A DNA stretch of 64,000 nt from NCBI RefSeq assembly GCF_963665245.2, contig NZ_CAXXEY010000003.1:1083895-1147894 (forward strand), given 5' to 3'. Shown here piece by piece: positions 14,506 through 30,709 of the stretch (the stretch's first letter is position 1; each line of letters starts with the position of its first letter). The notes beneath the pieces were generated by a model. The model saw only the letters and a program-made list of their open reading frames with translations. It ran no database searches and had not been told where the DNA came from. The DNA is from an uncultured Paludibaculum sp. Its GTDB lineage: Bacteria > Acidobacteriota > Terriglobia > Bryobacterales > Bryobacteraceae. The translations under genes were made by a program, and so were the position numbers.

Positions 14506-15960
14506 TCACGCCGGCCGCGTCCGCCCCTCCGCCTTGGCCTTCTCCAGGAGACCCGTAAGCCGCTCCACCACCTCCGCCTCTTTCAGGTACAAGTTGCCCG
14601 TCTCCGCCGGATCCCTGGTCATGTCATACAGCTCACCCGGTGCCTCACCCGGACCTGGCGTCACCGAGACTGGCTTCGTGAATCCCCCGGATCCTCGTCC
14701 GGCGATCAGTTTCCATTGACCCTCTCGAACCGAGAACATACCCTGCGCGGAATGATGGATCACCGACGTCCGCCGAGGGCCCCGGCCCGCGCGCCCCGCC
14801 ATCATCGCAGGCAGCAGACTGAAACTATCCTCCGCCGCCGCCTTCGGCAACTCCACTCCACTCAAGTCCGCCGCCGTCGCGACAACGTCGGTCAGACAGC
14901 TCAGATCGCCGCACGTCCGCCCGGCCTTCACCCGCCCCGGCCATCGAGCCAGAAACGGAACCCGGTGGCCACCGTCGAAGATGTCCGCCTTCATCCCGCG
15001 CCAGCCGTTATTCGCCCGATGCCCATACCGCGCAATCTCGTCCGCAGTCCAGTACGCCCCGTTGTCACTCGCAAACAGCACCAGGGTATTCTTCCGGATC
15101 CCGCTTTCCTCGATCGCGGCCAGTACCTGACGGACCGAATCATCGATCTGAGCCACGAAGTCGCCATACTCACCCGCCGTCGACTTTCCTTGGAACGGTG
15201 CCCGCGGCATCCACGGCGTGTGCGGACCCGTCATCGGAAAGTACAGGAAGAACGGTGCCTTCTTCACTGCCCGCTCTTTCACAACGGAAACGGCCTTGCG
15301 CGTGATCGTGGGCATCACCTCTCCGATATCAAAGTGCGGCGCAATCGCTCCGGCCCGCCAGAACGCGCCTCGCGGATTCGTACCGCCACTGCCAGGAGTC
15401 CTCTCGGTCGCTCGCTCCACCACCCTGTCGTTCTCGAAGTACAGATACGGCGCCATATCGAGCGATGCCGGAATGCCAAAGTAGTAGTCGAACCCGTGTG
15501 CGCGCGGCCCCGGCGACAGAGGTTGATCGAAATCCGTATGCGGCCGATCTCCCAGTCCCAGGTGCCATTTGCCCACCCCGGCCGTGTAGTACCCCCGCTC
15601 CCGTAACAACGATGGCAGGGTCAATCGCGCCTCTTCAATCAGGTTCGGCGAATCGCCCTGCAGTACCCCTCGCTTCAGTCGCGAACGCCAGCAGTAGCGC
15701 CCCGTGAGCAGACCATATCGCGTCGGCGTGCACACCGAGCTGGGCGAGTGCATGTCCGTGAACCGCACACCCTCCTCCGCCAGCCTATCCAGGTTGCGCG
15801 TCGCAATCCCCGACCGTGGGTTGTAGCAGCTCAGGTCCCCGTTGCCGAGGTCATCCGCCAGAATCAGGACGATGTTGGGCCGCTCCACCGCGGCCTGGCT
15901 GACACCGGTGTGCGCACCGAGGGCCAGCGTGGAACAGAAGGATCGTCGGGTAAGTGTCAT
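14506..15960 (-). CDS. Arylsulfatase (Cys-type, Tat-exported)
   Basis: TRRSF leader; ILADDLG; CTPTR formylglycine motif; GKWHLG. Confidence 0.94.
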   Translation of the reverse strand: MTLTRRSFCSTLALGAHTGVSQAAVERPNIVLILADDLGNGDLSCYNPRSGIATRNLDRLAEEGVRFTDMHSPSSVCTPTRYGLLTGRYCWRSRLKRGVLQGDSPNLIEEARLTLPSLLRERGYYTAGVGKWHLGLGDRPHTDFDQPLSPGPRAHGFDYYFGIPASLDMAPYLYFENDRVVERATERTPGSGGTNPRGAFWRAGAIAPHFDIGEVMPTITRKAVSVVKERAVKKAPFFLYFPMTGPHTPWMPRAPFQGKSTAGEYGDFVAQIDDSVRQVLAAIEESGIRKNTLVLFASDNGAYWTADEIARYGHRANNGWRGMKADIFDGGHRVPFLARWPGRVKAGRTCGDLSCLTDVVATAADLSGVELPKAAAEDSFSLLPAMMAGRAGRGPRRTSVIHHSAQGMFSVREGQWKLIAGRGSGGFTKPVSVTPGPGEAPGELYDMTRDPAETGNLYLKEAEVVERLTGLLEKAKAEGRTRPA

Positions 15961-19000: not shown

Positions 19001-19471
19001 GTAGAGCGGATTACGCCCGTTCAGCATCATGTTCTCGATCTGCTTCCCTTCAATCAGCTTCCCCACCGTGGCCGTTTCGCTCTGGACCGTGGCGGCCTCT
19101 GCCGTCACTTCGACGCTCTCTGAAAGCGACCCCAGCGTCAGCGTCGCATCGATCGTCGCCGCCATGTTGGGATCCAGCTTGTTCTGCGTCTTCACATACT
19201 TCTTGAATCCCGGTGCCTCCACCGACAGCGCATAGACGCCCGGCGGCAGGCTGGGAACCACGTAATACCCGCTTTCATTCGTCGTGGCGTGCCGTTCCAG
19301 CCCCGTCGTCTCGTTCCGCAAGTCCACACTCACGTTAGGAATCCCGGCGCCTGCCGGGTCCTTCACATACCCCGAAACCTGGGCGCTGTCAGACTGCGCC
19401 AAAACCGTCCCCACACATAGGAAGAAGAGCGCGAGCAACGGACGTAGTTGTTTCATGACCTGTATCCTCAA
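16046..19471 (-). CDS. TonB-dependent receptor with N-terminal carboxypeptidase-regulatory-like domain
   Basis: 1141 aa; VSGYVKDPAGAGIP.., plug YNAEYGRASGG, C-terminal LSLRYSF. Confidence 0.93.
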   Translation of the reverse strand: MRIQVMKQLRPLLALFFLCVGTVLAQSDSAQVSGYVKDPAGAGIPNVSVDLRNETTGLERHATTNESGYYVVPSLPPGVYALSVEAPGFKKYVKTQNKLDPNMAATIDATLTLGSLSESVEVTAEAATVQSETATVGKLIEGKQIENMMLNGRNPLYLALLKPGVRGGSLQAFSFDLTNGGFAINGSRTTDNMITYDGAPAVRTRGNNTSVGTVDVETVQEIQVLTANYNAEYGRASGGQVRIVTKSGGRDFHGSLYEYFRNEKLDANTWARNRTGDVRQANKFNQFGYVVSGPVYVPGKWNQEKNKLFFLWAQEYVRYRQEQTSAQIVPSLAMRQGDFSELLSASNSFFGKVRTINDPLTGQPFAGNLIPASRVSANGLGLLKAYPAPVAGFLQGASNYYTTAPQPTDQRKDTISVDFNPSERHAVRFRHLNYQFQQDQAFNTGFDIAAPRWDRPNETWTTNWTWTLSPTTINELQASVSVDRVRIDVNRDNGKYARGQYGINYPYIYPEQKEIADKVPTIGIANFATVDGSPYPSKSAGPIYVLADSLTKIMGSHTLKAGVSYEYSGQNDFDQINVQGVPGGTNNQNGRFVFTDSRAGAATSGLAVANAALGLFDTYAEIGPRSYTPYRGQQFEWFAQDSWKASSKLRVEFGIRHTLMTPFWYSLWRNIAIFDPRQYDPSKAVVQDPKTGFILSGDRYNGVVIPGNGFPSEAKGRVSGVDSGAYDRLFTGGSKAYPQLQTMNFQPRVGLAYSISGKDVLRAGFGRFFARPSMSGNILLGGNPPFQPMASIASGQVDNPGGGSNNAFPFYFMTIEPEFKIPSAYNWNATYERNVGFDTTVSVAYVGRVGLHMERERDLNQLPVGTLTVAANKAVNVNVLRPYKGYTNIAYRETAARSAYQGMQLDVNRRFAKGFSFNFAYTYSKSLDNGSDFRARLYNAYDDKNFWGPSDFDTRHVAVTNVIYEIPFLKTNKGLAGRVLGGWMATSAIQFQTGTPVTIGTSDDLAGIGSSDSQPWEVRGNPMLSRGERAFSQGAADSNFWFRATDGSGALFTAPAAGTFSTTQGRNQYIYNPGFQNWNLSLSKEFPIFEKHRVLLRAESFNFLNHPNWGAVTTNPRSATFSKVTAKSSERNIQLSLRYSF

Positions 19472-21249
19472 GACCTCGAATTCAGCCGCCGCAGCGACAT
19501 CGCATACACACCGAAACCCGGTTTCCCCTCACCCGCCACACACCGCAGCCGCGCCGGCATCCGCCCCGCCGGCAGGCGTACCACCCCCACCCGCCGTTCT
19601 GCCCAGTTCATCACCGGAGCCTCCTTGCGCGGCACCACGTCGCGCATCACCACCGGGCCACCAGGGCTCTGCTGCTCCACCGCACACTCCACCGCCTCCA
19701 CCGCGCCCACCTGCACGGACAGCCGCGTCCCTACGGCTTCCGGCGGACACAACACGGTCAGTTGGATCTCGTACTCGCCGGGCTTCACTACATCCAGATC
19801 CCAACTCATGCCGTCGCCAACCGCCGTCCACCCCGACGCCCAGTCATGGGCCCATCCCGCTCCCTGGAAATACCGGACCTGCCCCTCCAGCTTGGCCTGC
19901 GTCGCGGTCAGCACCGCCGGATTTTCCTCCGCGTAGCCCACGGGAATCGGAAAGTGTTCCAGTCCGTGCGGCCGCATCACGTCCGCAAACCACTTCTCGT
20001 ACGCCGCCTTCAGCTCCGCCGCCTGCTCCGGATGCTCCGCCGCCACATTCTTCGACTCCCCCGGATCCGCGGCGACATCGTACAGCTCGCGCCCGTTCAC
20101 CAGATTGAACCGCTGCGTCCGCACCGCCCCTGGATACTGCGCCCCCGGATTCTTCGCCGGCTCGCCGTGCGTGAACAGCATCCGTTCCGGCCAGGCCCGT
20201 CCGTCACCCTCCAGCAGCGGCCGCAGACTCACCCCGTCCAGCGTGGGACCCTTCGGCCGTTCCACGCCCGCCAGGTCCAGCAGCGTTGGAAACAGATCAA
20301 TATGTGCCGCAATCCGGTCCACCTTCTTGCCCGCCGTCAGCCGGCCCGGCCACCGTACACACAACGCTGAGCGTGTTCCGCCCTCGTACACGCTCCCCTT
20401 CCGCCCGCGCAATCCACCCGTATACCGGTCCGTGTTCGGGCCGTTGTCGCCCAGGAAGATCACAATGGTGTCCTCGGCCAGCTTCCGTTCTTCCAGGTGT
20501 TGCAGCAGCCGGCCCACCTGGTCGTCCAGGCATGCCGTCAACGCATACGCGGCCGCCGTCTCCCGGGTCACGCCCGCCAGGTCGCGGAATCGCGCCCAAT
20601 ACCGCTCCGGAACCTGGAACGGCGAGTGGGGCACGTTGTATGCCATGTACAGGAAGAACGGCTCGCTCCGGTGCCCGTCGATGTACCGCATCGCCTCGCC
20701 GGTCAGCGCCTCCGTCACATACCCCTTCAGTTGGTGCGGCTTCCCGTTCCGTTCGAACTTCGGATCCCAGTAGTCGTACCAGTGCCCCGTCCGGAATCCG
20801 ACGAACTCCTCAAACCCCCGTGCATGGGGAACATAGGGATAGTTCTCTCCCAGATGCCACTTCCCGAACAGCGCCGTCCGGTATCCGGCAGGGCGCAGCG
20901 CCTCGGCCAACGTCACCTCCCCGGCCCGCATCGTCTCTCGTCCACCCGTCACGCCATGCACCCCGCACCGCAGGTGGTATCGCCCCGTCAGCAGACTGGC
21001 CCGCGTCGGAGCGCAGACCGGCGAGACGTGGAACCGCATGAACTCCACCCCTTCCCCGGCCAATCGGTCCAGGTTTGGGGTCGCCAGTAGAGGGTTCCCA
21101 TGCGCGGATAGATCGCCCCACCCCTGATCGTCGGAGAGAATCAGCAGGATGTTCGGACGAGTTCGCCCTGTCCGCCGCCCACCGGCCGCCAAAGGCGCCG
21201 CCGCGGTTTGCAGGAACTCCCGTCTACTGGTGGAAAATCGGTCGCTCAT
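19468..21249 (-). CDS. Arylsulfatase (Cys-type, Tat-exported) with C-terminal extension
   Basis: SRREFL leader; ILSDDQG; CAPTR; GKWHLG; stop overlaps TonB receptor start. Confidence 0.94.
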   Translation of the reverse strand: MSDRFSTSRREFLQTAAAPLAAGGRRTGRTRPNILLILSDDQGWGDLSAHGNPLLATPNLDRLAGEGVEFMRFHVSPVCAPTRASLLTGRYHLRCGVHGVTGGRETMRAGEVTLAEALRPAGYRTALFGKWHLGENYPYVPHARGFEEFVGFRTGHWYDYWDPKFERNGKPHQLKGYVTEALTGEAMRYIDGHRSEPFFLYMAYNVPHSPFQVPERYWARFRDLAGVTRETAAAYALTACLDDQVGRLLQHLEERKLAEDTIVIFLGDNGPNTDRYTGGLRGRKGSVYEGGTRSALCVRWPGRLTAGKKVDRIAAHIDLFPTLLDLAGVERPKGPTLDGVSLRPLLEGDGRAWPERMLFTHGEPAKNPGAQYPGAVRTQRFNLVNGRELYDVAADPGESKNVAAEHPEQAAELKAAYEKWFADVMRPHGLEHFPIPVGYAEENPAVLTATQAKLEGQVRYFQGAGWAHDWASGWTAVGDGMSWDLDVVKPGEYEIQLTVLCPPEAVGTRLSVQVGAVEAVECAVEQQSPGGPVVMRDVVPRKEAPVMNWAERRVGVVRLPAGRMPARLRCVAGEGKPGFGVYAMSLRRLNSRS

Positions 21250-22926: not shown

Positions 22927-24306
22927 TCACCTCGTGGCATCTTGCAACCGAATCGCGGCGAGAAAGCGGAGCACTTTAGGCCACCACTGCGCCTGAACTT
23001 TCGCGGTTGCCTCCGGTGTGCCGCCAATCTCGTCCGCCATGCGACCCCGCAAGCCTGCCGTCGGTAAATAGGTTAAGGGTAGCCAGTGGCCTGCACCTTG
23101 ATACGACACGTGCTCATCCGCATAGGGGTGGCCGTTTCGGCGCAGCCTGTCCATCGCTCGTCCACACATTAACGTGGAAGGCCACTTTCGATCATTACTG
23201 CCAGAGCCGAGCAGAACGGGACCGCGGATTCGCTCCACCGCGATCTGCACATCGTCGCTTTCGGCCCGGCCCAGGCTGTCAATAAACATCGGCTCCAAGG
23301 AGAGCGAAGTGCGAGTGAGACTGGCCCAGACATAACGAGCCGCAAAGCCGGGGGCAATGTGGAATCGGACATAGGGCAACGGCTTGCCCTGATAGGTCCA
23401 GGCAGGCCCACCTGGAAATCCATTTGCTGTCGCGCCCTCCCATCTCACATGGCTGCCAGATACGCCCACAACGCCGTTCACCTCCGGATAGGTAGAGCCC
23501 GCGATCAGGGCGGCCTCGGCGCCTCGGGAGCCTCCAATGATCGTAACCGTCGTGCCTTGAACGCCCGGAAGCAACTGCATGCAGTGAATCGCCCTGCCCA
23601 GGTATTCGACTGGTATTCTTTGCATGCCGGCCGGCAGTCCGTCCGTTCCGAAGTACGCCAAGGCCAAAGTCACGAATCCTCGCGACGCCAGCATGGCGCC
23701 TTCCGGGGTAGGAAACCCGCCTTCTGAACCGCCGAGAAGAATCACTCCGGGATGCTTGTGATCGTCACTTGGGCGGTAGAGGATCCCTACAACGCCATTG
23801 TTTTTGAAAGGTGCCACACGAACGCCTGGCGCCGCGAGATGACGGACGACCTGCGCGGTTCCCAGCACCCGGGCGCCGGAAGCTGCTTCAACATGGGTCA
23901 CGATTGGTTTGAACCAATCGACTAGGGAAAAGAACGCAGGCAAGGGCCGGCACGATCTGTCGGGCTCCATCGACCAGAACAGCCCCATACCGTCGATACC
24001 TGTATACGAGGCGGAGATTGGAGCCTGTGTGGAAAGGTCAATGGATCCATCTTGCCCGGTTCGGAAGACGGCGGAACTGCGCCACCAGCAGCTTCTCTGA
24101 TCTTCCGACGAGGCACGCAGGGTGATGCTGCGATTTGGGGGCAATCCCGTCATCCTGATCGTGACACGCTCGTCCATGAGTGCTGGATTCGGAGAGATCA
24201 GGAAGGCGGCTTGCCATTCATTGTCTGCTGCCAGGGCGTGGCAGTTCGCGTGTATCAGCCATGCCACGGCTAACGCCCGCAGGCCACGAACGATGCTGCT
24301 CTGCAT
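22927..24306 (-). CDS. Acyl-CoA thioesterase/BAAT-family hydrolase with signal peptide
   Basis: LLGGSEGG, GGSRGAE (GxSxG), GAGHW; start re-set to ATG 24306. Confidence 0.88.
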   Translation of the reverse strand: MQSSIVRGLRALAVAWLIHANCHALAADNEWQAAFLISPNPALMDERVTIRMTGLPPNRSITLRASSEDQRSCWWRSSAVFRTGQDGSIDLSTQAPISASYTGIDGMGLFWSMEPDRSCRPLPAFFSLVDWFKPIVTHVEAASGARVLGTAQVVRHLAAPGVRVAPFKNNGVVGILYRPSDDHKHPGVILLGGSEGGFPTPEGAMLASRGFVTLALAYFGTDGLPAGMQRIPVEYLGRAIHCMQLLPGVQGTTVTIIGGSRGAEAALIAGSTYPEVNGVVGVSGSHVRWEGATANGFPGGPAWTYQGKPLPYVRFHIAPGFAARYVWASLTRTSLSLEPMFIDSLGRAESDDVQIAVERIRGPVLLGSGSNDRKWPSTLMCGRAMDRLRRNGHPYADEHVSYQGAGHWLPLTYLPTAGLRGRMADEIGGTPEATAKVQAQWWPKVLRFLAAIRLQDATR

Positions 24307-24432
24307 ATCATCACTGTCAATGTTACGCACGCGGCGCTCGTCATGTTCGAATGAGAATCGAATTATCCATCGAAGCCCCGTTGGCCAGGATGGGCGCATC
24401 GAGAAAACGCAACGTCGGTCAACTCCGGGGCA

Positions 24433-24780
24433 TCAGCGCTTGACGTCGGTTGCGCAGGCCGGTGAGCGTTCGCCACCTCGGGCCAGTGTTGCTTCCAGGG
24501 ACTGCAGCTCAAGCATCGCTTTGCGAAGTATGTCGGCCTGCCGCTGCGGCCAAATGCCGCCATGCCCGGCGTTGTATTCCTTCGCGAACTGGGAGACCGC
24601 ATCGACCAGCGTGTTGAATCGCGCCTCGAAATGCCGTCGTCGCATCTCTTCTCTGGTAGCGGCTTCTCGTTGGTTAGCGCGGATTCGTTCCTTCAGCGCC
24701 ATCTCCGCGGCCTCCGCGGCTCGGGTCCTGTCTATGGGAGCGGCAACAAGCTGAAAGGCAAGGACGAATTGAACCACCAT
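24433..24780 (-). CDS. Small helical, probably secreted hypothetical protein
   Basis: 115 aa directly downstream of arsC; hydrophobic N-terminus. Confidence 0.6.
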   Translation of the reverse strand: MVVQFVLAFQLVAAPIDRTRAAEAAEMALKERIRANQREAATREEMRRRHFEARFNTLVDAVSQFAKEYNAGHGGIWPQRQADILRKAMLELQSLEATLARGGERSPACATDVKR

Positions 24781-24794
24781 GGCTCACCTCGCGG

Positions 24795-25208
24795 CTAGAC
24801 GGCTTTGGCGAAACCTTCGACGCGCTCCCTGATCTGATCGCGGATTCGTCGGAACGCGGCTCTCCTCACTTCTTCCGGTCCGTCCACAGCGGCCGGATCT
24901 TCAAAGCTCCAGTGAATGCGCTCCACCTTACCTGGCAGAATGGGGCAGCTCTCTTTCGCGTTGTCACAGACAGTGAAAACGTAACGGAATTCGTGGCTCA
25001 GAAATTCATCGACCGACTTCGATCGATGATTGGATATATCGATGCCCAGTTCCGCCATGACGGCGATGGCTTCGGGCCGGACCAGGCTTGGTCTCGTCCC
25101 GGCGCTGTGAACGTCAAAGCGGTCTCCAAGATAGTGGCGGAAAAGGCCCTCTCCCATCTGGCTGCGGGCCGAGTTGCCGGTGCAAAGCACGAGAATGCTG
25201 GGCTTCAT
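24795..25208 (-). CDS. arsC: Arsenate reductase, thioredoxin-coupled (LMW-PTP fold)
   Basis: CTGNSARSQM P-loop; TVCDNAKESCP redox Cys pair; HWSFEDPA. Confidence 0.9.
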   Translation of the reverse strand: MKPSILVLCTGNSARSQMGEGLFRHYLGDRFDVHSAGTRPSLVRPEAIAVMAELGIDISNHRSKSVDEFLSHEFRYVFTVCDNAKESCPILPGKVERIHWSFEDPAAVDGPEEVRRAAFRRIRDQIRERVEGFAKAV

Positions 25209-25211
25209 GGC

Positions 25212-25706
25212 TTAGGGCTTCTTGATTTCCTTCTCGTAGTACTCCCGGAATCGCTTGTTGATGTCGTCCCGGACCGCGCGGAACACTGTCAGCTTCTCGG
25301 CATCCGTCCCGCTTGCCTTTGCGGGATCCGGGAATCCGATGTGTGTGCGCACTCCGACCTTGCCACGGAAGGCAGGGCAGGACTTGTCCGCGTCGTCGCA
25401 TACCGTAATCACGTAGTCGAAGGACAGGTTGATGAATTGGCTGACACTCTTTGGAGTCCCGCCAGAGATGTCGATACCCACTTCGCGCATTGCCTGGATC
25501 GCAAAAGGATTGACCCGAGCAGCGGGCTTTGTGCCCGCGGAGAATACCTGCAGTCGGGGATCAAACGACTCCAGGAAGCCTGCTGCCATTTGGCTCCTGG
25601 CCGAATTGCCAGTGCACAGCACAAGAACACGAGCTTTGCCCGCGTCCGCCGCGGGCATCGTAGCTGCGAGCAGACACACCAATACCATCAGTTGCGCGAT
25701 GCGCAT
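25212..25706 (-). CDS. arsC: ArsC/LMW-PTP paralogue with N-terminal signal peptide
   Basis: MRIAQLMVLVCLLAATMPAADA leader, then CTGNSARSQM and TVCDDADKSCP. Confidence 0.85.
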   Translation of the reverse strand: MRIAQLMVLVCLLAATMPAADAGKARVLVLCTGNSARSQMAAGFLESFDPRLQVFSAGTKPAARVNPFAIQAMREVGIDISGGTPKSVSQFINLSFDYVITVCDDADKSCPAFRGKVGVRTHIGFPDPAKASGTDAEKLTVFRAVRDDINKRFREYYEKEIKKP

Positions 25707-25720
25707 TGTTGGAGCCCTCT

Positions 25721-25916
25721 CTACTTACAGAGTTGAACGATCTCTTCAGCCGTGATCATTTTGTTCCTCGCGCAGCATTCCACGCAAAGGAACGTAAGCA
25801 ACTCACAAAAACATAGGTGTTAGCGCTGTAGCGCAGGTTATGATGCGGAGTCTGGGTTCGGTCCCAATGGCGGCGAGCATGTCCACGAAGCGGACTGTTT
25901 GGTCTTCCTGAACCAT
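25721..25916 (-). pseudogene. arsR: arsR pseudogene: HTH core deleted plus a frameshift
   Basis: Hand translation: MVQEDQTVRFVDMLAAIGTEPRLRII / LRYSANT / ELLTFLCVECCARNKMITAEEIVQLCK* in three successive frames; AAGGAG RBS. Confidence 0.85.
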
Positions 25917-25931
25917 TAGCTCCTTCATTAT

Positions 25932-25963
25932 TTCCAAGATAACAGAAATATGGAACATGTCAA
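25932..25963 (-). promoter_or_regulatory. ars promoter/operator
   Basis: - strand TTGACA-16 bp-TATCTT preceded by TG; TTCCA-N14-TGGAA inverted repeat (25932-25955) over the spacer and -10. Confidence 0.65.
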
Positions 25964-26632
25964 GCGGATAGATTGGCTCGGGTGCTGCTGCACCAGGTCG
26001 CTGGGTTCAACTCGAGTCGGCAGTCCTCGCGAACCGCGCGATCATCCCAGCGGGCAAAGTGCCGACGGCTGAGGATCTGCGGATGAGGATCTTGCGATGC
26101 TCACTGGTCGAAGTGCTGGTCATGCTCACGGTCCGCGCGGCCTGCAATCGTACCTATCACTGGTTCGCGTTTGAGCCCGCGTTGGGACTATTGCCGTCTC
26201 GGCTGGATCCTGTGGCGGTAAACCTACATGGGAAACTGCTGTCAGCCTGCTCCGGTGCCAGCTCCAGCGGCGCTTCGGACGGTGAGTGTCCGAGGAGTAC
26301 GTCGAACTCTCTAGCCAGAGGAGCTTCGAATTCTCTGAGGTGCCGGGTGGGGCCGGAAGTGAGAGCCCGCGGCTGCCCGCAGCTCTCATGAATGATCAAG
26401 CCAATCATAGAATACCAAGTTAAATTATTGAAAACAAGACTAGATTTTTGTCCCTCATTCGCTTAGCATCGACCTCACCAAGCACCATTCCTGGTTGTGA
26501 AGCATCGCCCTCCGGAGGGGTTACCTGCGGCACGGGGCTGTGGGAGAACCATGCCTGAGCGGAGAGCCGCAGCCGGAGAGACGGGCGCTTTTTCGACACG
26601 GCCTTTCCATTCAGATCCCAAGGGAGGACTTC

Positions 26633-27670
26633 ATGATTCCGCAAGAGAAGTGCGAGGCAGTGACCCGCGGTCTGCGCGAGGCTTTCGGAGTATCAAAGTT
26701 CGAGGACATCTCGAAGCTCACCGGGGGGCATACCTCGTCCCTCGTCTTTCGCATCGTCGTGGGCGGCTCGCCATACGTGTTGAAGATCATCACGCGTACA
26801 GAGGATCCTACGCGCCACTACACCAGCATGAAGGCGGCGGCGGAAGCCGGTGTGGCGCCGCGTGTCTGGTACACCAGCATCGAGGACAGGATTTCGATCA
26901 CGGATTTTGTCGAGGCCAAACCTCTTGCGATATCGGAGGCGCTGATCAAGTTGCCAGCTCTGCTGCGGACGCTGCATGCGCTGCCGCCCTTCGGTCGGGC
27001 TCCTTTCAACACCACATGTACGTTCCTGCTCAACAAAGGACCGGCCTTGGACGGGTTCCTCCAGAAGTTTCGAACTGACAATATCCTGCCCAAAGCCGAA
27101 AGCGAGGAGTTCTTCGCCCGGTATACGGAAGTGGCCGCAGTTTACCCGTATGACGACGGGGAGATGGTGTCGAGCCACAACGACGTATTCAAACCGGACA
27201 ACGTGCTTTTCGATGGACAACGCGTGTGGCTGGTGGACTGGGAAGCTGCGTTCCTGAACGACCGGTATGCCGACCTGGCAGTGCTTGCGAATCACGTAGT
27301 CACGAATGACGACGAGGAGACGGTCTACCTTCAGGAATACTTTGGCGCGACGCCCGATCGTTACCAGCGAGCCCGATTCCATCTGATGCAGCAGCTCGCC
27401 CATTTGTTCTACTCCATGGTCTTCCTCTCTCTGGGTTCGGCGGGCCAGCCGGTCGATTGGAGTAGAGCCGTGCCCGGCTTCGACGACTATCATCGGCGCA
27501 TGTGGGCTAGGGAAGTTGACCTGGCGGACAACGATGTGCGGCTTACCTACGGCCGGGTTCACTGGGAGCGGGTTGTACAAAACGTGCGGCAGGCACGATA
27601 CAAAGAAGCCCTCAGAATTGTTTCTCAGCCGGAACCAACAGCGAAGGTCATCGCGCTCCGGTCTCTGTGA
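26633..27670 (+). CDS. Aminoglycoside phosphotransferase/choline kinase-family protein
   Basis: HNDVFKPDN Brenner motif, VDWE; GGAGG RBS before ATG 26633. Confidence 0.85.
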   Translation: MIPQEKCEAVTRGLREAFGVSKFEDISKLTGGHTSSLVFRIVVGGSPYVLKIITRTEDPTRHYTSMKAAAEAGVAPRVWYTSIEDRISITDFVEAKPLAISEALIKLPALLRTLHALPPFGRAPFNTTCTFLLNKGPALDGFLQKFRTDNILPKAESEEFFARYTEVAAVYPYDDGEMVSSHNDVFKPDNVLFDGQRVWLVDWEAAFLNDRYADLAVLANHVVTNDDEETVYLQEYFGATPDRYQRARFHLMQQLAHLFYSMVFLSLGSAGQPVDWSRAVPGFDDYHRRMWAREVDLADNDVRLTYGRVHWERVVQNVRQARYKEALRIVSQPEPTAKVIALRSL

Positions 27671-27676
27671 ATTGTG

Positions 27677-27720
27677 CATAAGGACTCGCTTATGTAATGC
27701 TACATAAGCAATCTCTTATG
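27677..27720 (+). promoter_or_regulatory. Twin palindromic operator CATAAG-N6-CTTATG
   Basis: Exact copies at 27677-27694 and 27703-27720; the second ends in the ATG of the ArsR-family gene. Confidence 0.8.
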
Positions 27721-28086
27721 CATCATTCGCCCAATACAGTCTTCAAGGCGGTTGCCCATCCCGCGCGCCGGAGAATCATCGACCTGCTGTCGCATTCGCC
27801 GTGTACGGTCAAGGAGCTGACGGCGTCTTTCACGATGTCTCAGCCAGCCGTCTCCCAGCATCTTCGCGAATTGCGCGACGCCGGGCTCGTTGCCTCCGAG
27901 ACGTTCGGTCCTGAACACCGCTATCGGCTGATCGCAAATCCCCTGCAGCAGGTGTTCGAGTGGACGGCGCAGTACAAACACTTCTTCGATCCCTCCGGCC
28001 ACGCATGGTCGTTTACGCCGGCTGCACCGGACCCCAAGCAGCCCATCGGCGGCAAAAGGAAAGGTGGTCCGCGCAATGGCAGTTGA
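27718..28086 (+). CDS. ArsR/SmtB-family transcriptional regulator (no Cys metal site evident)
   Basis: FKAVAHPARRRIIDLL, MSQPAVSQHLRELRDAGLV; alternative start 27697. Confidence 0.9.
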   Translation: MHHSPNTVFKAVAHPARRRIIDLLSHSPCTVKELTASFTMSQPAVSQHLRELRDAGLVASETFGPEHRYRLIANPLQQVFEWTAQYKHFFDPSGHAWSFTPAAPDPKQPIGGKRKGGPRNGS

Positions 28087-28579
28087 AGGTTCGACGCCTG
28101 ATCCCGGAGTGATCGTGCCTCATCTGGTAGTGCGCGACATGCCGGAGGCGCTTGATTTCTATACCAGCGCGTTCTCGGCCCGCGTTCTCTATCGCTCCGT
28201 CTCGCCGAGTGGTCAAGGGGAGCACGTCCACCTGCAAGTCTGGTCGTCGCTCATCCAACTCTCCACGGAGGAGCCTGACTACGAGCATCGCCGGATGGCC
28301 GGTGCGTTCCTGGCCTCGCCGGAGACCCTTCGAGGGACAAGTTGCGTCTTCCAGGTCGCTGTTCCGGACGTTGACGCAGCCTATCAACGGGCAGTCGATC
28401 ACGGAGCACTTCCAGCCATGCCGCCGGTGGATATGTTTTGGGGTGATCGCTATGGCTGGGTGCGCCATCCCTTTGGCCACATGTGGGCGCTTTGTACCAT
28501 TCAGGAAGTGCTGACGCCCGATGAAGTTGCCGCTAGGATGCGCGCATTCTCTTCTCAGATGAAAGGACATGAGGAATGA
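28076..28579 (+). CDS. VOC/glyoxalase (PhnB-like) protein
   Basis: PHLVVRDMPEALDFY, MFWGDRYG..PFGHMW. Confidence 0.88.
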   Translation: MAVEGSTPDPGVIVPHLVVRDMPEALDFYTSAFSARVLYRSVSPSGQGEHVHLQVWSSLIQLSTEEPDYEHRRMAGAFLASPETLRGTSCVFQVAVPDVDAAYQRAVDHGALPAMPPVDMFWGDRYGWVRHPFGHMWALCTIQEVLTPDEVAARMRAFSSQMKGHEE

Positions 28580-29259: not shown

Positions 29260-29997
29260 TCAGCGGTCCGCAACAAACTCCGCCGCGACAACTGCCGGAT
29301 GCTTCGTGCGGGCGTTCCGAAGCGTCCGCATGATCGTGGCGTTGCGAAATCCCGCGGCGCGGAATTCGTCAAGGAATGCACCTGCATCCTTCGCGCCGGC
29401 AATTCACGAGAACCAGTTATCGTTGCCGGACCTTAGGTGCTCAGGCAAGGGGGCACTCAGCACCAGTTCCGCACCCGAAACATGGCCTCCTGGACGAACC
29501 ACGCGGCCCAGCTCACGGAATATCTCTTCTCGAAATGGGTTGAGGTTGAAAATGCCATTGACCAGGGCGACATCGACCGACGAATCGGGGAATGGCAGTT
29601 GCTCGGCGGAGGCGCGCACAAACGACACCTGCGAAAGCCCGAGCCGCCTGGCGGAACGTCGTGCCCGGTCGAGCATGCCCTCACTAAAATCGATTCCGAC
29701 CACGCGACCTCTTCGCCTCACTCGCTGCGCTGCGATGAGGCTGTCCAGACCGGCACCGCAACCCAAATCGATCACGTCCAGTCCGTCACGGAGGGGCGCC
29801 TGCAGAGAAACGCTCGACACACCGGCGAAGGCAGCGACGGCTTCATCCGGAAGTGCGCGCAACAGATCATCCGGGTATCCAAGGTCGCGAGCAAAGACGG
29901 CACCTACGGGAAACGGATGTCTCCCGTCAGGGGCGTCGGCCGCGGCCGAGTAGGCCCTGCGCACTGACTCCCGCAACTCGTGTGAGCTCGTCGTCAC
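29260..29997 (-). CDS. ArsM-like SAM methyltransferase, probable selenoprotein (UGA at 29404-29406 read as Sec)
   Basis: DLGCGAGLD, GIDFSEGM; ...DNWFS-TGA-IAGAKDAGAFLDEFRAAGFRNATIMRTLRNARTKHPAVVAAEFVADR*; UGA aligns with the ArsM C-terminal Cys of xCxGGA; probable GTG start 29997. Confidence 0.85.
29371..29406 (-). other. Bacterial SECIS-like hairpin
   Basis: mRNA: UGA-12 nt-AAGGA UGC [AGGU] GCA (U) UCCUU; 8-bp stem with one bulged U and a G-containing apical loop. Confidence 0.75.
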
Positions 29998-30034
29998 GTT
30001 CTGCCCGCCACTTCGACCGTATTTGAAGCGGACG

Positions 30035-30709
30035 TCATCTCGGCGCCTCGCCCACGGCCACAGGCAATCCATTGGCCCGCCAGTCGGGGACTCCATCTTC
30101 CAGCCGGACAGCCCGAAAACCCTGAGAGCGCAGTAGTCTTACAGCCTCGACCGCCAGGACGCAGTAGGGGCCCCGGCAATAGGCGACGACTTCCCGGTCA
30201 CGCGGGAGCATCGTGAGCTGCGTTTCGAGTTCCTTGAGTGGAATGGACAGGGCACCGGGAATATGGCCCGCCCGATACTCTTCTCTCGGGCGAACGTCCA
30301 GCACGATCACTTCGGCCCGGCGTACGCGGTTCAGCAGTGCCTCTTTGTCGACCGGTTCCATCGACCCGCGATCGGTGTTGAACTGCCGGACAATCGCGTC
30401 GATTTCCGCGAGGCGGCTCTCGGCGAGCGTGCGCAGTCCCCGGTAGAAATCGCAGACCTGCTCGTCGGCGAGGCGATAGGTCACAAACACGCCTTCCTTC
30501 ACCGTCTCGACCAATCGAGCCGAATGTAGGACTCGAAGATGCTGAGAGGCATTGGCGACGCTCAATCCGGCTTCGCGCGCAAGCGCCTCAACTGTTCGCG
30601 GCCCCTGGCACAAGAGGTCCAGCAGTTCCAGTCTGGGCGGACTACCAACCGCCCTGCCGATGCGGGCGAGTTGCTCATAGACGGCTTTTTTTAGCGACGT
30701 TCCAGCCAT
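30035..30709 (-). CDS. ArsR/SmtB regulator fused to a rhodanese domain
   Basis: SPPRLELLDLL..SVANASQHL HTH; DVRPREEYRAGHIPGA and YCRGPYC rhodanese loop. Confidence 0.93.
   Translation of the reverse strand: MAGTSLKKAVYEQLARIGRAVGSPPRLELLDLLCQGPRTVEALAREAGLSVANASQHLRVLHSARLVETVKEGVFVTYRLADEQVCDFYRGLRTLAESRLAEIDAIVRQFNTDRGSMEPVDKEALLNRVRRAEVIVLDVRPREEYRAGHIPGALSIPLKELETQLTMLPRDREVVAYCRGPYCVLAVEAVRLLRSQGFRAVRLEDGVPDWRANGLPVAVGEAPR

Follow-up and report, generated by a model that had tools for sequence, protein, structure and literature searches.

In the genome of an uncultured Paludibaculum sp. (Acidobacteriota; Bryobacterales), a stretch of 64,000 nucleotides (contig NZ_CAXXEY010000003.1, positions 1,083,895 to 1,147,894; hereafter the window, with positions counted from its first letter) holds two genes for the arsenate reductase ArsC. 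The two open reading frames are arranged in tandem on the minus strand, with ArsC-A upstream of ArsC-B and 3 bases between the stop codon of the first and the ATG of the second (Table 1). ArsC-B is predicted to be cytoplasmic, an ordinary thioredoxin-type ArsC; ArsC-A carries an N-terminal leader in front of its catalytic domain. As judged by sequence comparison, ArsC-A belongs to a monophyletic clade of thioredoxin-type ArsCs in the Bryobacterales and other Acidobacteriota that has acquired an export signal, Sec-type in the window and of the twin-arginine translocation (Tat) type in many relatives. Between 22000 and 29000 the window is matched without one difference by four independent DNA runs, and the features of the locus are therefore not an artefact of assembly.

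A first-pass annotation of the DNA had described two adjacent ArsC genes of the low-molecular-weight protein tyrosine phosphatase (LMW-PTP) fold, both keeping the CX5R and CX6C motifs, and the open reading frames, the Pfam matches and a residue-by-residue reading bear this out. In ArsC-A the P-loop reads C31-TGNSA-R37-S and the redox pair C103-DDADKS-C110, followed by D127-P; ArsC-B has the P-loop C9TGNSAR15S, the pair C81/C88 and D104. LMWPc is the sole Pfam match of either protein (E 1e-16 for ArsC-A, 1e-22 for ArsC-B), with no match in either to the glutaredoxin-coupled ArsC of the R773 type (PF03960) or to a molybdopterin domain of ArrA, and the best NCBIfam model for both is TIGR02691, the thioredoxin-type ArsC. 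Membership of the LMW-PTPs proper (Wzb/Etp/Ptp type) finds no support, the Wzb model scoring 26 bits against a cut-off of 243; the loop of ArsC-A reads D127-P-A-K where LMW-PTPs have D-P-Y-Y, and unlike those phosphatases it keeps both extra cysteines. The solved sequence nearest to ArsC-A is that of Bacillus subtilis ArsC (1JL3). A Foldseek search with the AlphaFold (AF2) model, whose mean confidence (pLDDT) is 87.8, placed ArsC2 of Deinococcus indicus first (8P5N, target-normalised TM score 0.93), followed by 1JL3; the domain also superposes on pI258 ArsC, with target-normalised TM scores of 0.86-0.93 and 36-44% identity across the solved ArsCs. In the same model the leader has a pLDDT of 51-59, with a detached helix of low confidence over residues 3-14 and disorder at residues 16-20.

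The leader itself (MRIAQLMVLVCLLAATMPAADA, followed by GK) has a single arginine (R2), a hydrophobic core of about 15 residues, a proline (P18) at position -5 and A-D-A before the predicted cut. Leaders were classified as Sec or Tat by rule, from their n-h-c architecture and a small-x-small site for signal peptidase I; by these rules ArsC-A has a signal peptide, as do 116 of 120 homologue clusters. With one arginine, it lacks the twin-arginine motif (S/T-R-R-x-F/L-L) and is of the Sec type. An in-frame TAA 21 nt before the ATG of M1 (25706) rules out any earlier start, and this ATG is preceded by a Shine-Dalgarno-like GAGAGGG, which has no counterpart before the internal M17. All 16 codons ahead of M17 are open, and the leader that they encode resembles the leaders of the nearest relatives, whose full-length identity to ArsC-A is 79-80% (in P0002, MPVARLMVLVCLFAASMAAADA). 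The Sec-type leader with its hydrophobic core and A-D-A, which the first-pass annotation had noticed on the upstream copy and would have given up had the true start lain past it, thus proves genuine and conserved in the homologue survey: 86 of the 116 leader-bearing homologues have no methionine between leader and domain from which translation could alternatively begin. A start at M17 was accordingly rejected for the family and is unlikely in the window. A lipoprotein signal was also considered and rejected; C11 is preceded by V-L-V, so that no G, A or S stands at -1, and the cysteine is not conserved beyond the closest relatives.

Table 1. Features of the arsC locus, in window coordinates
Feature	Position	Strand	Description
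ArsC-A	25212-25706	-	164 amino acids, LMW-PTP-fold ArsC with N-terminal leader
ArsC-A leader, residues 1-22 (MRIAQLMVLVCLLAATMPAADA)	25641..25706	-	Sec-type signal peptide, predicted cut after A20-D21-A22
ArsC-A mature domain, residues 23-164 and stop	25212..25640	-	C31/R37 P-loop, C103/C110 redox pair, D127
ArsC-B	24795-25208	-	137 amino acids, leaderless thioredoxin-type ArsC (C9/R15, C81/C88, D104)
115-amino-acid conserved gene	24433..24780	-	YNAGxGxxWP motif, hydrophobic N-terminus; follows leaderless arsC
arsR pseudogene	25724-25928	-	N-terminal (..LAAIGTEPRLRII) and C-terminal (ELLTFLCVECCARNK..) pieces left, in different frames
Sigma-70-like promoter	25936..25963	-	TTGACA, 16-nt spacer, TG-TATCTT; upstream of arsR remnant
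acr3 3' remnant	26104-26169	+	66 bp, divergent; about residues 334-354 of 361

A leader-bearing clade of ArsC

The homologue set comprised the 120 best clusters, which are 66-80% identical to ArsC-A. An N-terminal extension is present in 116 of them, with a median length of 24 amino acids and a median uncharged stretch of 18; lysine or arginine stands near the N-terminus in 98 clusters and a small-x-small site occurs in 115. The four leaderless exceptions look like truncated gene calls, the window's own (P0001) included. While the mature domain stays 66-80% identical the sequence of the leader drifts freely, as is typical of signal peptides.

A second survey scanned species genomes, one per species, and returned 80 loci. 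The best 52, taken here as the exported clade, all encode a leader-bearing ArsC and belong nearly without exception to Bryobacteraceae, Solibacteraceae, Paludibaculum and other Acidobacteriota, with L032 coming from the cultured Paludibaculum fermentans; the remoter loci (at most 61% identity), from Chloroflexota, Ignavibacteria and Bacteroidota, encode a leaderless one. In a neighbour-joining tree of 117 ArsC domains from the scanned loci, the 52 leader-bearing proteins form one exclusive clade, sister to leaderless ArsCs and apart from their leaderless partners within those loci, with which the window's ArsC-B groups. The survey of signal-bearing homologues and their neighbours that the first-pass annotation had called for thus yielded a monophyletic group of 52 residing in ars operons. 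When 1.8 billion proteins are clustered at 50% identity, this clade reduces to essentially one representative, P0121.

Leaders within the clade are of two kinds, Sec-like in 33 of the 52 and twin-arginine-like in the remaining 19, where T/N-R-R-x-L-L is followed by a weak hydrophobic region (as in MKLTRRNLLIAAAGLPLLGA, MNLTRRQLVLAAMATPALPLAA and MQMKTRRELLGGLIALPSLA). In the tree, leaders of the Tat type turn up in at least three stretches that are apart from each other. The pathway therefore switches between Sec and Tat and yet the leader is kept, from which it appears that export itself is under selection.

Catalytic residues are kept throughout. The equivalents of C10, N13, R16, S17, C82, C89 and D105 are invariant in all 52 exported members; the P-loop C-X5-R-(S/T) is invariant in these and in 65 of 65 leaderless relatives, and the CX6C pair and the general-acid aspartate (the Asp105 equivalent) are so in every relative examined. 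Some features set the exported clade apart from the leaderless ArsCs with which it was compared: the loop between C82 and C89 reads CDDADKxC as against CDNA[RKA]ExC, and there is a one-residue insertion together with a basic extension of the C-terminal helix. The loop could hint at a different redox partner. Two further signatures, FLxSFD and HIGF, occur in the leaderless relatives L053 and P0145 as well, and the clade signature may therefore reflect lineage and not substrate.

Operons of relatives and a decayed locus in the window

In the relatives the leader-bearing arsC is located in ars operons, with arsR, arsM, acr3, arsA/arsD, arsP and arsH as neighbours. Three arrangements recur: acr3 divergent from arsR, then the exported and the leaderless arsC; arsR, exported arsC, arsM and leaderless arsC; and arsR, arsM, exported arsC, acr3 and leaderless arsC. 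Genes for arsA/arsD, arsP, arsH and a small thioredoxin-like protein are often nearby. In 30 of the 52 loci a leaderless arsC of the same orientation follows no more than 3.5 kb downstream, in 18 of them as the immediate neighbour, and in six relatives (L001, L002, L005, L007, L008 and L025), the closest of those that have arsM, this gene stands between the exported and the leaderless arsC; many loci have no arsM. Gene cluster c0, in which ArsR had been merged with antisense open reading frames, was read by eye and left out of the counts.

The 115-amino-acid gene that follows ArsC-B is probably the last gene of the window operon. Its product has no Pfam or NCBIfam match, and it occupies the same position, after the leaderless arsC, in at least five other loci (L008, L025, L018, L019 and L085), making it a possible uncharacterised ars-associated gene. 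In L085 (1-20510) the order is arsR, arsM, exported arsC, acr3, a pyridine-nucleotide disulfide oxidoreductase, arsC and a 116-amino-acid gene, all on an element resembling an integrative and conjugative element, with a type IV secretion system coupling protein, a relaxase and an integrase, and with merC/merR adjoining the ars cluster. The exported arsC is thus mobile.

Compared with these operons, the window holds the remains of one. DNA alignment with L001, L005 and L007 reveals that arsR has suffered an internal deletion of 142 bp and a 1-base gap further downstream, by which the winged helix-turn-helix was lost and the frame shifted; with the intact ArsR of L007 as query, tblastn matches residues 6-27 and 87-113 only, and the C-terminal ECC metal-binding motif survives. 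Of acr3, a fragment remains that is 81-86% identical over 21 amino acids by tblastn and 82% identical over 66 bp to the acr3 of L001 by blastn, with the remaining 1 kb or so of the gene gone. The first-pass annotation had remarked on the absence of arsB/acr3 from the operon, which is literally true of an intact gene; the remnant reveals a secondary loss, and since acr3 was deleted its absence is not a property of the system. The further idea that periplasmic reduction would dispense with a pump fails on the relatives, which usually carry acr3, and often arsA/arsD and arsP, beside the exported arsC. No arsM lies between the window's arsC genes, where the junction (25208-25221) shows a 4-bp overlap of the flanks, which reflects either a clean loss of arsM or the ancestral arrangement, with adjacent arsC genes, that remoter relatives show. 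Both arsC reading frames and the 115-amino-acid gene are intact, with every ArsC catalytic residue present.

Upstream of the arsR remnant, the Sigma-70-like promoter is the only promoter-like match between 24300 and 26500, where 0.6 would be expected by chance. Both of its hexamers are kept in L001 and L005, as is the -10 in L007, where the alignment begins only past the -35 box, and it probably drives the arsC pair. With arsR broken and the promoter retained, arsC-A, arsC-B and the 115-amino-acid gene are probably expressed constitutively in this genome. The -10 hexamer ends 7 nt before the arsR ATG, a spacing common to L001, L005 and L007 that suggests a leaderless arsR mRNA, and an inverted repeat, ATTTC-N10-GAAAT, spans the -10 region (25926-25963) and may be the ArsR operator.

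The wider surroundings differ in composition: the guanine and cytosine (GC) content is 0.565-0.59 over about 23000-28500 as against 0.62-0.65 in the flanks, and GC at third codon positions of the genes is lower too, which fits a horizontally acquired island. This stretch holds the ars remnant, an APH-family kinase, an ArsR-family regulator and a glyoxalase-family gene. A second arsenic-like pair lies at 29404-30709 on the minus strand, where an ArsR-rhodanese fusion (30035-30709) is followed by a 230-amino-acid S-adenosylmethionine methyltransferase that stops short of the C-terminal cysteine region of ArsM, to which it is 32-33% identical. Elsewhere in the window, clear twin-arginine leaders (MTLTRRSF... 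and ...STSRREFL...) are borne by two minus-strand sulfatases (14506-15960 and 19468-21249), which flank an outer-membrane protein resembling TonB-dependent receptors.

Proposed periplasmic reduction of arsenate and its alternatives

In the textbook model ArsC performs a cytoplasmic step: arsenate enters through phosphate transporters, is reduced, and the arsenite is pumped out. To our knowledge every characterised thioredoxin-type ArsC is cytoplasmic and is reduced by cytoplasmic thioredoxin. ArsC-A, by contrast, is very probably exported, to go by its leader and the persistence of leaders across its clade; the case for arsenate as what it then reduces in the periplasm is finely balanced. The reading we put forward, with the same even-handedness, is that ArsC-A, a precursor, gives rise to a thiol-cascade arsenate reductase outside the cytoplasm, in the periplasm, which works alongside the cytoplasmic copy. 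ArsC-A would be exported, through Sec in the window, and cleaved at ADA|G after A20-D21-A22. The mature enzyme would reduce periplasmic arsenate to arsenite before it could enter through the phosphate transporters, passing through the cascade C31 -> C103 -> C110 (the Cys10 -> Cys82 -> Cys89 equivalents), and the C103-C110 disulfide would be re-reduced at each turnover by a housekeeping periplasmic thiol-reducing pathway, perhaps a membrane transporter of the DsbD/CcdA/ScsB type feeding a thioredoxin like TlpA, ResA or CcmG. Cytoplasmic ArsC-B and Acr3 would deal with the arsenate that still enters, and the benefit to the cell would be a smaller influx of arsenate through its phosphate transporters. 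Extended to soil Bryobacterales in general, this becomes a two-compartment arsenate defence in which a Sec- or Tat-exported, cofactor-less ArsC, recharged by imported electrons, reduces periplasmic arsenate before uptake, a generalisation that we advance tentatively and with a little less assurance.

Several observations weigh against a periplasmic ArsC-A. The public gene call, P0001, begins at M17 and is 148 amino acids long, leaving out 25656-25706; such a start conceals the signal peptide, and the homologue clusters P0058, P0069 and P0099 look trimmed in the same way. The closest relatives carry basic residues just after the predicted cut, at +2 to +4 (GKAR, GKKR), and basic residues early in the mature part are unfavourable for Sec export in Escherichia coli. 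The housekeeping route of re-reduction is a step that we infer. No gene for a transporter of the DsbD/CcdA type, the source of reductant that the first-pass annotation had called for, or for a periplasmic thioredoxin was found in six Pfam-annotated loci, no linked periplasmic reductant (DsbD/CcdA, TlpA/ResA) appeared among the gene clusters from the 52 loci, and genes of a thioredoxin system show no consistent linkage to the exported arsC in the loci examined; a periplasmic protein containing cytochrome c (cluster c18) occurs in only 4. Nor was an ArsC fused to a periplasmic thioredoxin domain found among the 50%-identity representatives, where the fusions are with GNAT, ArsR, MIP, PhoU or a second ArsC. 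ArsC-A scores 111.5 bits and ArsC-B 139.5 with TIGR02691, both below the equivalog cut-off of 174.3; since the leaderless ArsC-B falls short too, the deficit reflects lineage distance and is unrelated to export. The window locus is without intact arsR, acr3 and arsM, and this copy could be heading to loss. Finally, no RNA run holding the locus was found; the four runs that do hold it give contigs of 12-52 kb with even depth and look like DNA.

Among the alternatives, the one that survives best, though we regard it as unlikely, grants export and assigns ArsC-A another substrate or role: the reduction of organoarsenicals (methylarsenate or aromatic compounds), the activity of a periplasmic phosphatase, or the binding or sensing of arsenate. 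Such a role would suit the position of arsM between the arsC genes in the six close relatives and the frequency of arsM, arsP and arsH as neighbours, although many loci are without arsM. It would also suit the clade's own C82-C89 loop and one-residue insertion; FLxSFD and HIGF, however, being shared with leaderless proteins, may mark descent and not substrate, and the P-loop does not differ from the one in ArsCs that reduce arsenate. LMW-PTP-type ArsCs do retain weak phosphatase activity. Neither a phosphatase nor an oxyanion trap, however, has need of C82 and C89, which the reductase cascade requires and which are invariant in 52 of 52 members, and so the cascade appears to be in use; the periplasmic phosphatase or arsenate trap that the first-pass annotation had entertained is correspondingly less likely. 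That the exported ArsC is the bacterial reductase for pentavalent methylarsenate, in particular, is a long shot; we know of no such bacterial enzyme that has been identified, and a literature search for a statement to that effect gave nothing usable.

It is improbable that the leader is instead an uncleaved N-out/C-in membrane anchor, holding the catalytic domain in the cytoplasm and tethering it near phosphate transporters or Acr3. The reductant problem would then vanish, and the distribution of charge lends the idea some credit, as Sec-type members carry a cluster of lysine and arginine (GKKR, GKAR) C-terminal to the core and only about one positive charge in the n-region, so that the positive-inside rule could favour a domain on the inner side. 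However, KKR also precedes strand 1 in leaderless ArsCs (MKKRVLILC) and is thus a feature of the fold with no bearing on topology, while basic residues in the c-region are normal in Tat signals. The cores, at about 12-16 residues, have the length of signal peptides, are short for a membrane span and are followed by proline or glycine and A-x-A sites; furthermore, the Tat leaders of 19 of the 52 orthologues have short, weakly hydrophobic cores rich in glycine and proline that are incapable of anchoring. Least probable of all is that the leader goes untranslated in this genome, with a start at M17, or that the gene is a decaying relic, a redundant cytoplasmic duplicate: the start of P0001, the loss of arsR, acr3 and arsM and the local GC dip that suggests an acquired island are what it has to offer, set against an open upstream stretch encoding a leader like those of the closest relatives, a Shine-Dalgarno sequence after the stop codon at M1 and none at M17, the integrity of both arsC genes and the 115-amino-acid gene, and the 86 of 116 relatives that cannot use an internal start.

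Several known systems come close to the periplasmic arsenate reductase of the ArsC type that we propose for ArsC-A. With the thioredoxin-coupled LMW-PTP ArsCs of B. subtilis (1JL3), Staphylococcus aureus pI258 (1LJL) and D. indicus (ArsC2, 8P5N), ArsC-A shares the fold, the CX5R(S) P-loop, Cys82/Cys89, the general-acid aspartate and the ars-operon context; it and its clade differ in their conserved Sec or Tat leader, whereas ArsC-B fits the cytoplasmic, signal-free pattern. ArrAB, the known periplasmic respiratory arsenate reductase, is alike in reducing arsenate in the periplasm (as predicted for ArsC-A), and some ArrAB are Tat-exported; it is, however, an energy-conserving molybdopterin/Fe-S enzyme of the dimethyl sulfoxide reductase family, where ArsC-A is a 15-kDa cofactor-less thiol enzyme of detoxification operons with no sequence or fold relation to it (Pfam, Foldseek). 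The ArsC variants ArsN-ArsC, ArsR-ArsC, MIP-ArsC, PhoU-ArsC and tandem ArsC-ArsC likewise redeploy the LMW-PTP ArsC in ars loci, and all five kinds are present among the representatives examined, MIP-ArsC being an ArsC joined to a membrane channel according to its Pfam matches; mostly they add soluble cytoplasmic domains, and none moves the catalytic domain to another compartment, as is predicted for ArsC-A. As for a thiol reductase relocated to the oxidising envelope and supplied with electrons across the membrane, a possible analogue is the Caulobacter cell-envelope peroxiredoxin PprX, which receives electrons via TlpA from a transporter of the ScsB/DsbD type (PMC3322552), and periplasmic Msr domains may serve as a second example of envelope enzymes fed by DsbD, ScsB or CcdA. 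Substrate and fold differ in both, and no partner thioredoxin or membrane electron transporter is linked to the exported arsC in the loci examined.

Full-text searches on ArsC with a signal peptide, Tat or the periplasm, and on the ars genes of Acidobacteria, yielded no description of a signal-bearing ArsC. In the literature 'periplasmic arsenate reductase' means ArrAB, and databases name the homologues of ArsC-A plain 'arsenate reductase'. The exported ArsC group of soil Acidobacteria is thus apparently undescribed. The enzyme family is known; what would be novel is the compartment and, with it, the redox partner and the physiological logic. If the proposal is correct, ArsC-A would be the first ArsC-type reductase found to work outside the cytoplasm, its conserved clade would add a pre-uptake step to the model of arsenic resistance, and the enzyme would join the few thiol reductases that are active in an oxidising envelope, raising the question of which partner recharges it. 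Soils, peat and paddy fields are rich in Bryobacterales. Extracytoplasmic reduction by such abundant soil bacteria would yield arsenite with neither uptake of arsenate nor efflux, and would affect arsenic mobility and the reading of metagenomic arsC counts; the feature is masked where gene calls cut the leader off, as happened in this genome.

Beyond the clade, a few unrelated leader-bearing ArsC-like proteins exist. One of them, P0159, has a textbook Tat signal (SRRRFL...AFA), and in its locus (L087, 8001-9765) the gene lies tail to tail with that of a phosphate-selective porin (Porin_O_P), a neighbourhood that, as a single case, fits a link to the entry of phosphate and arsenate.

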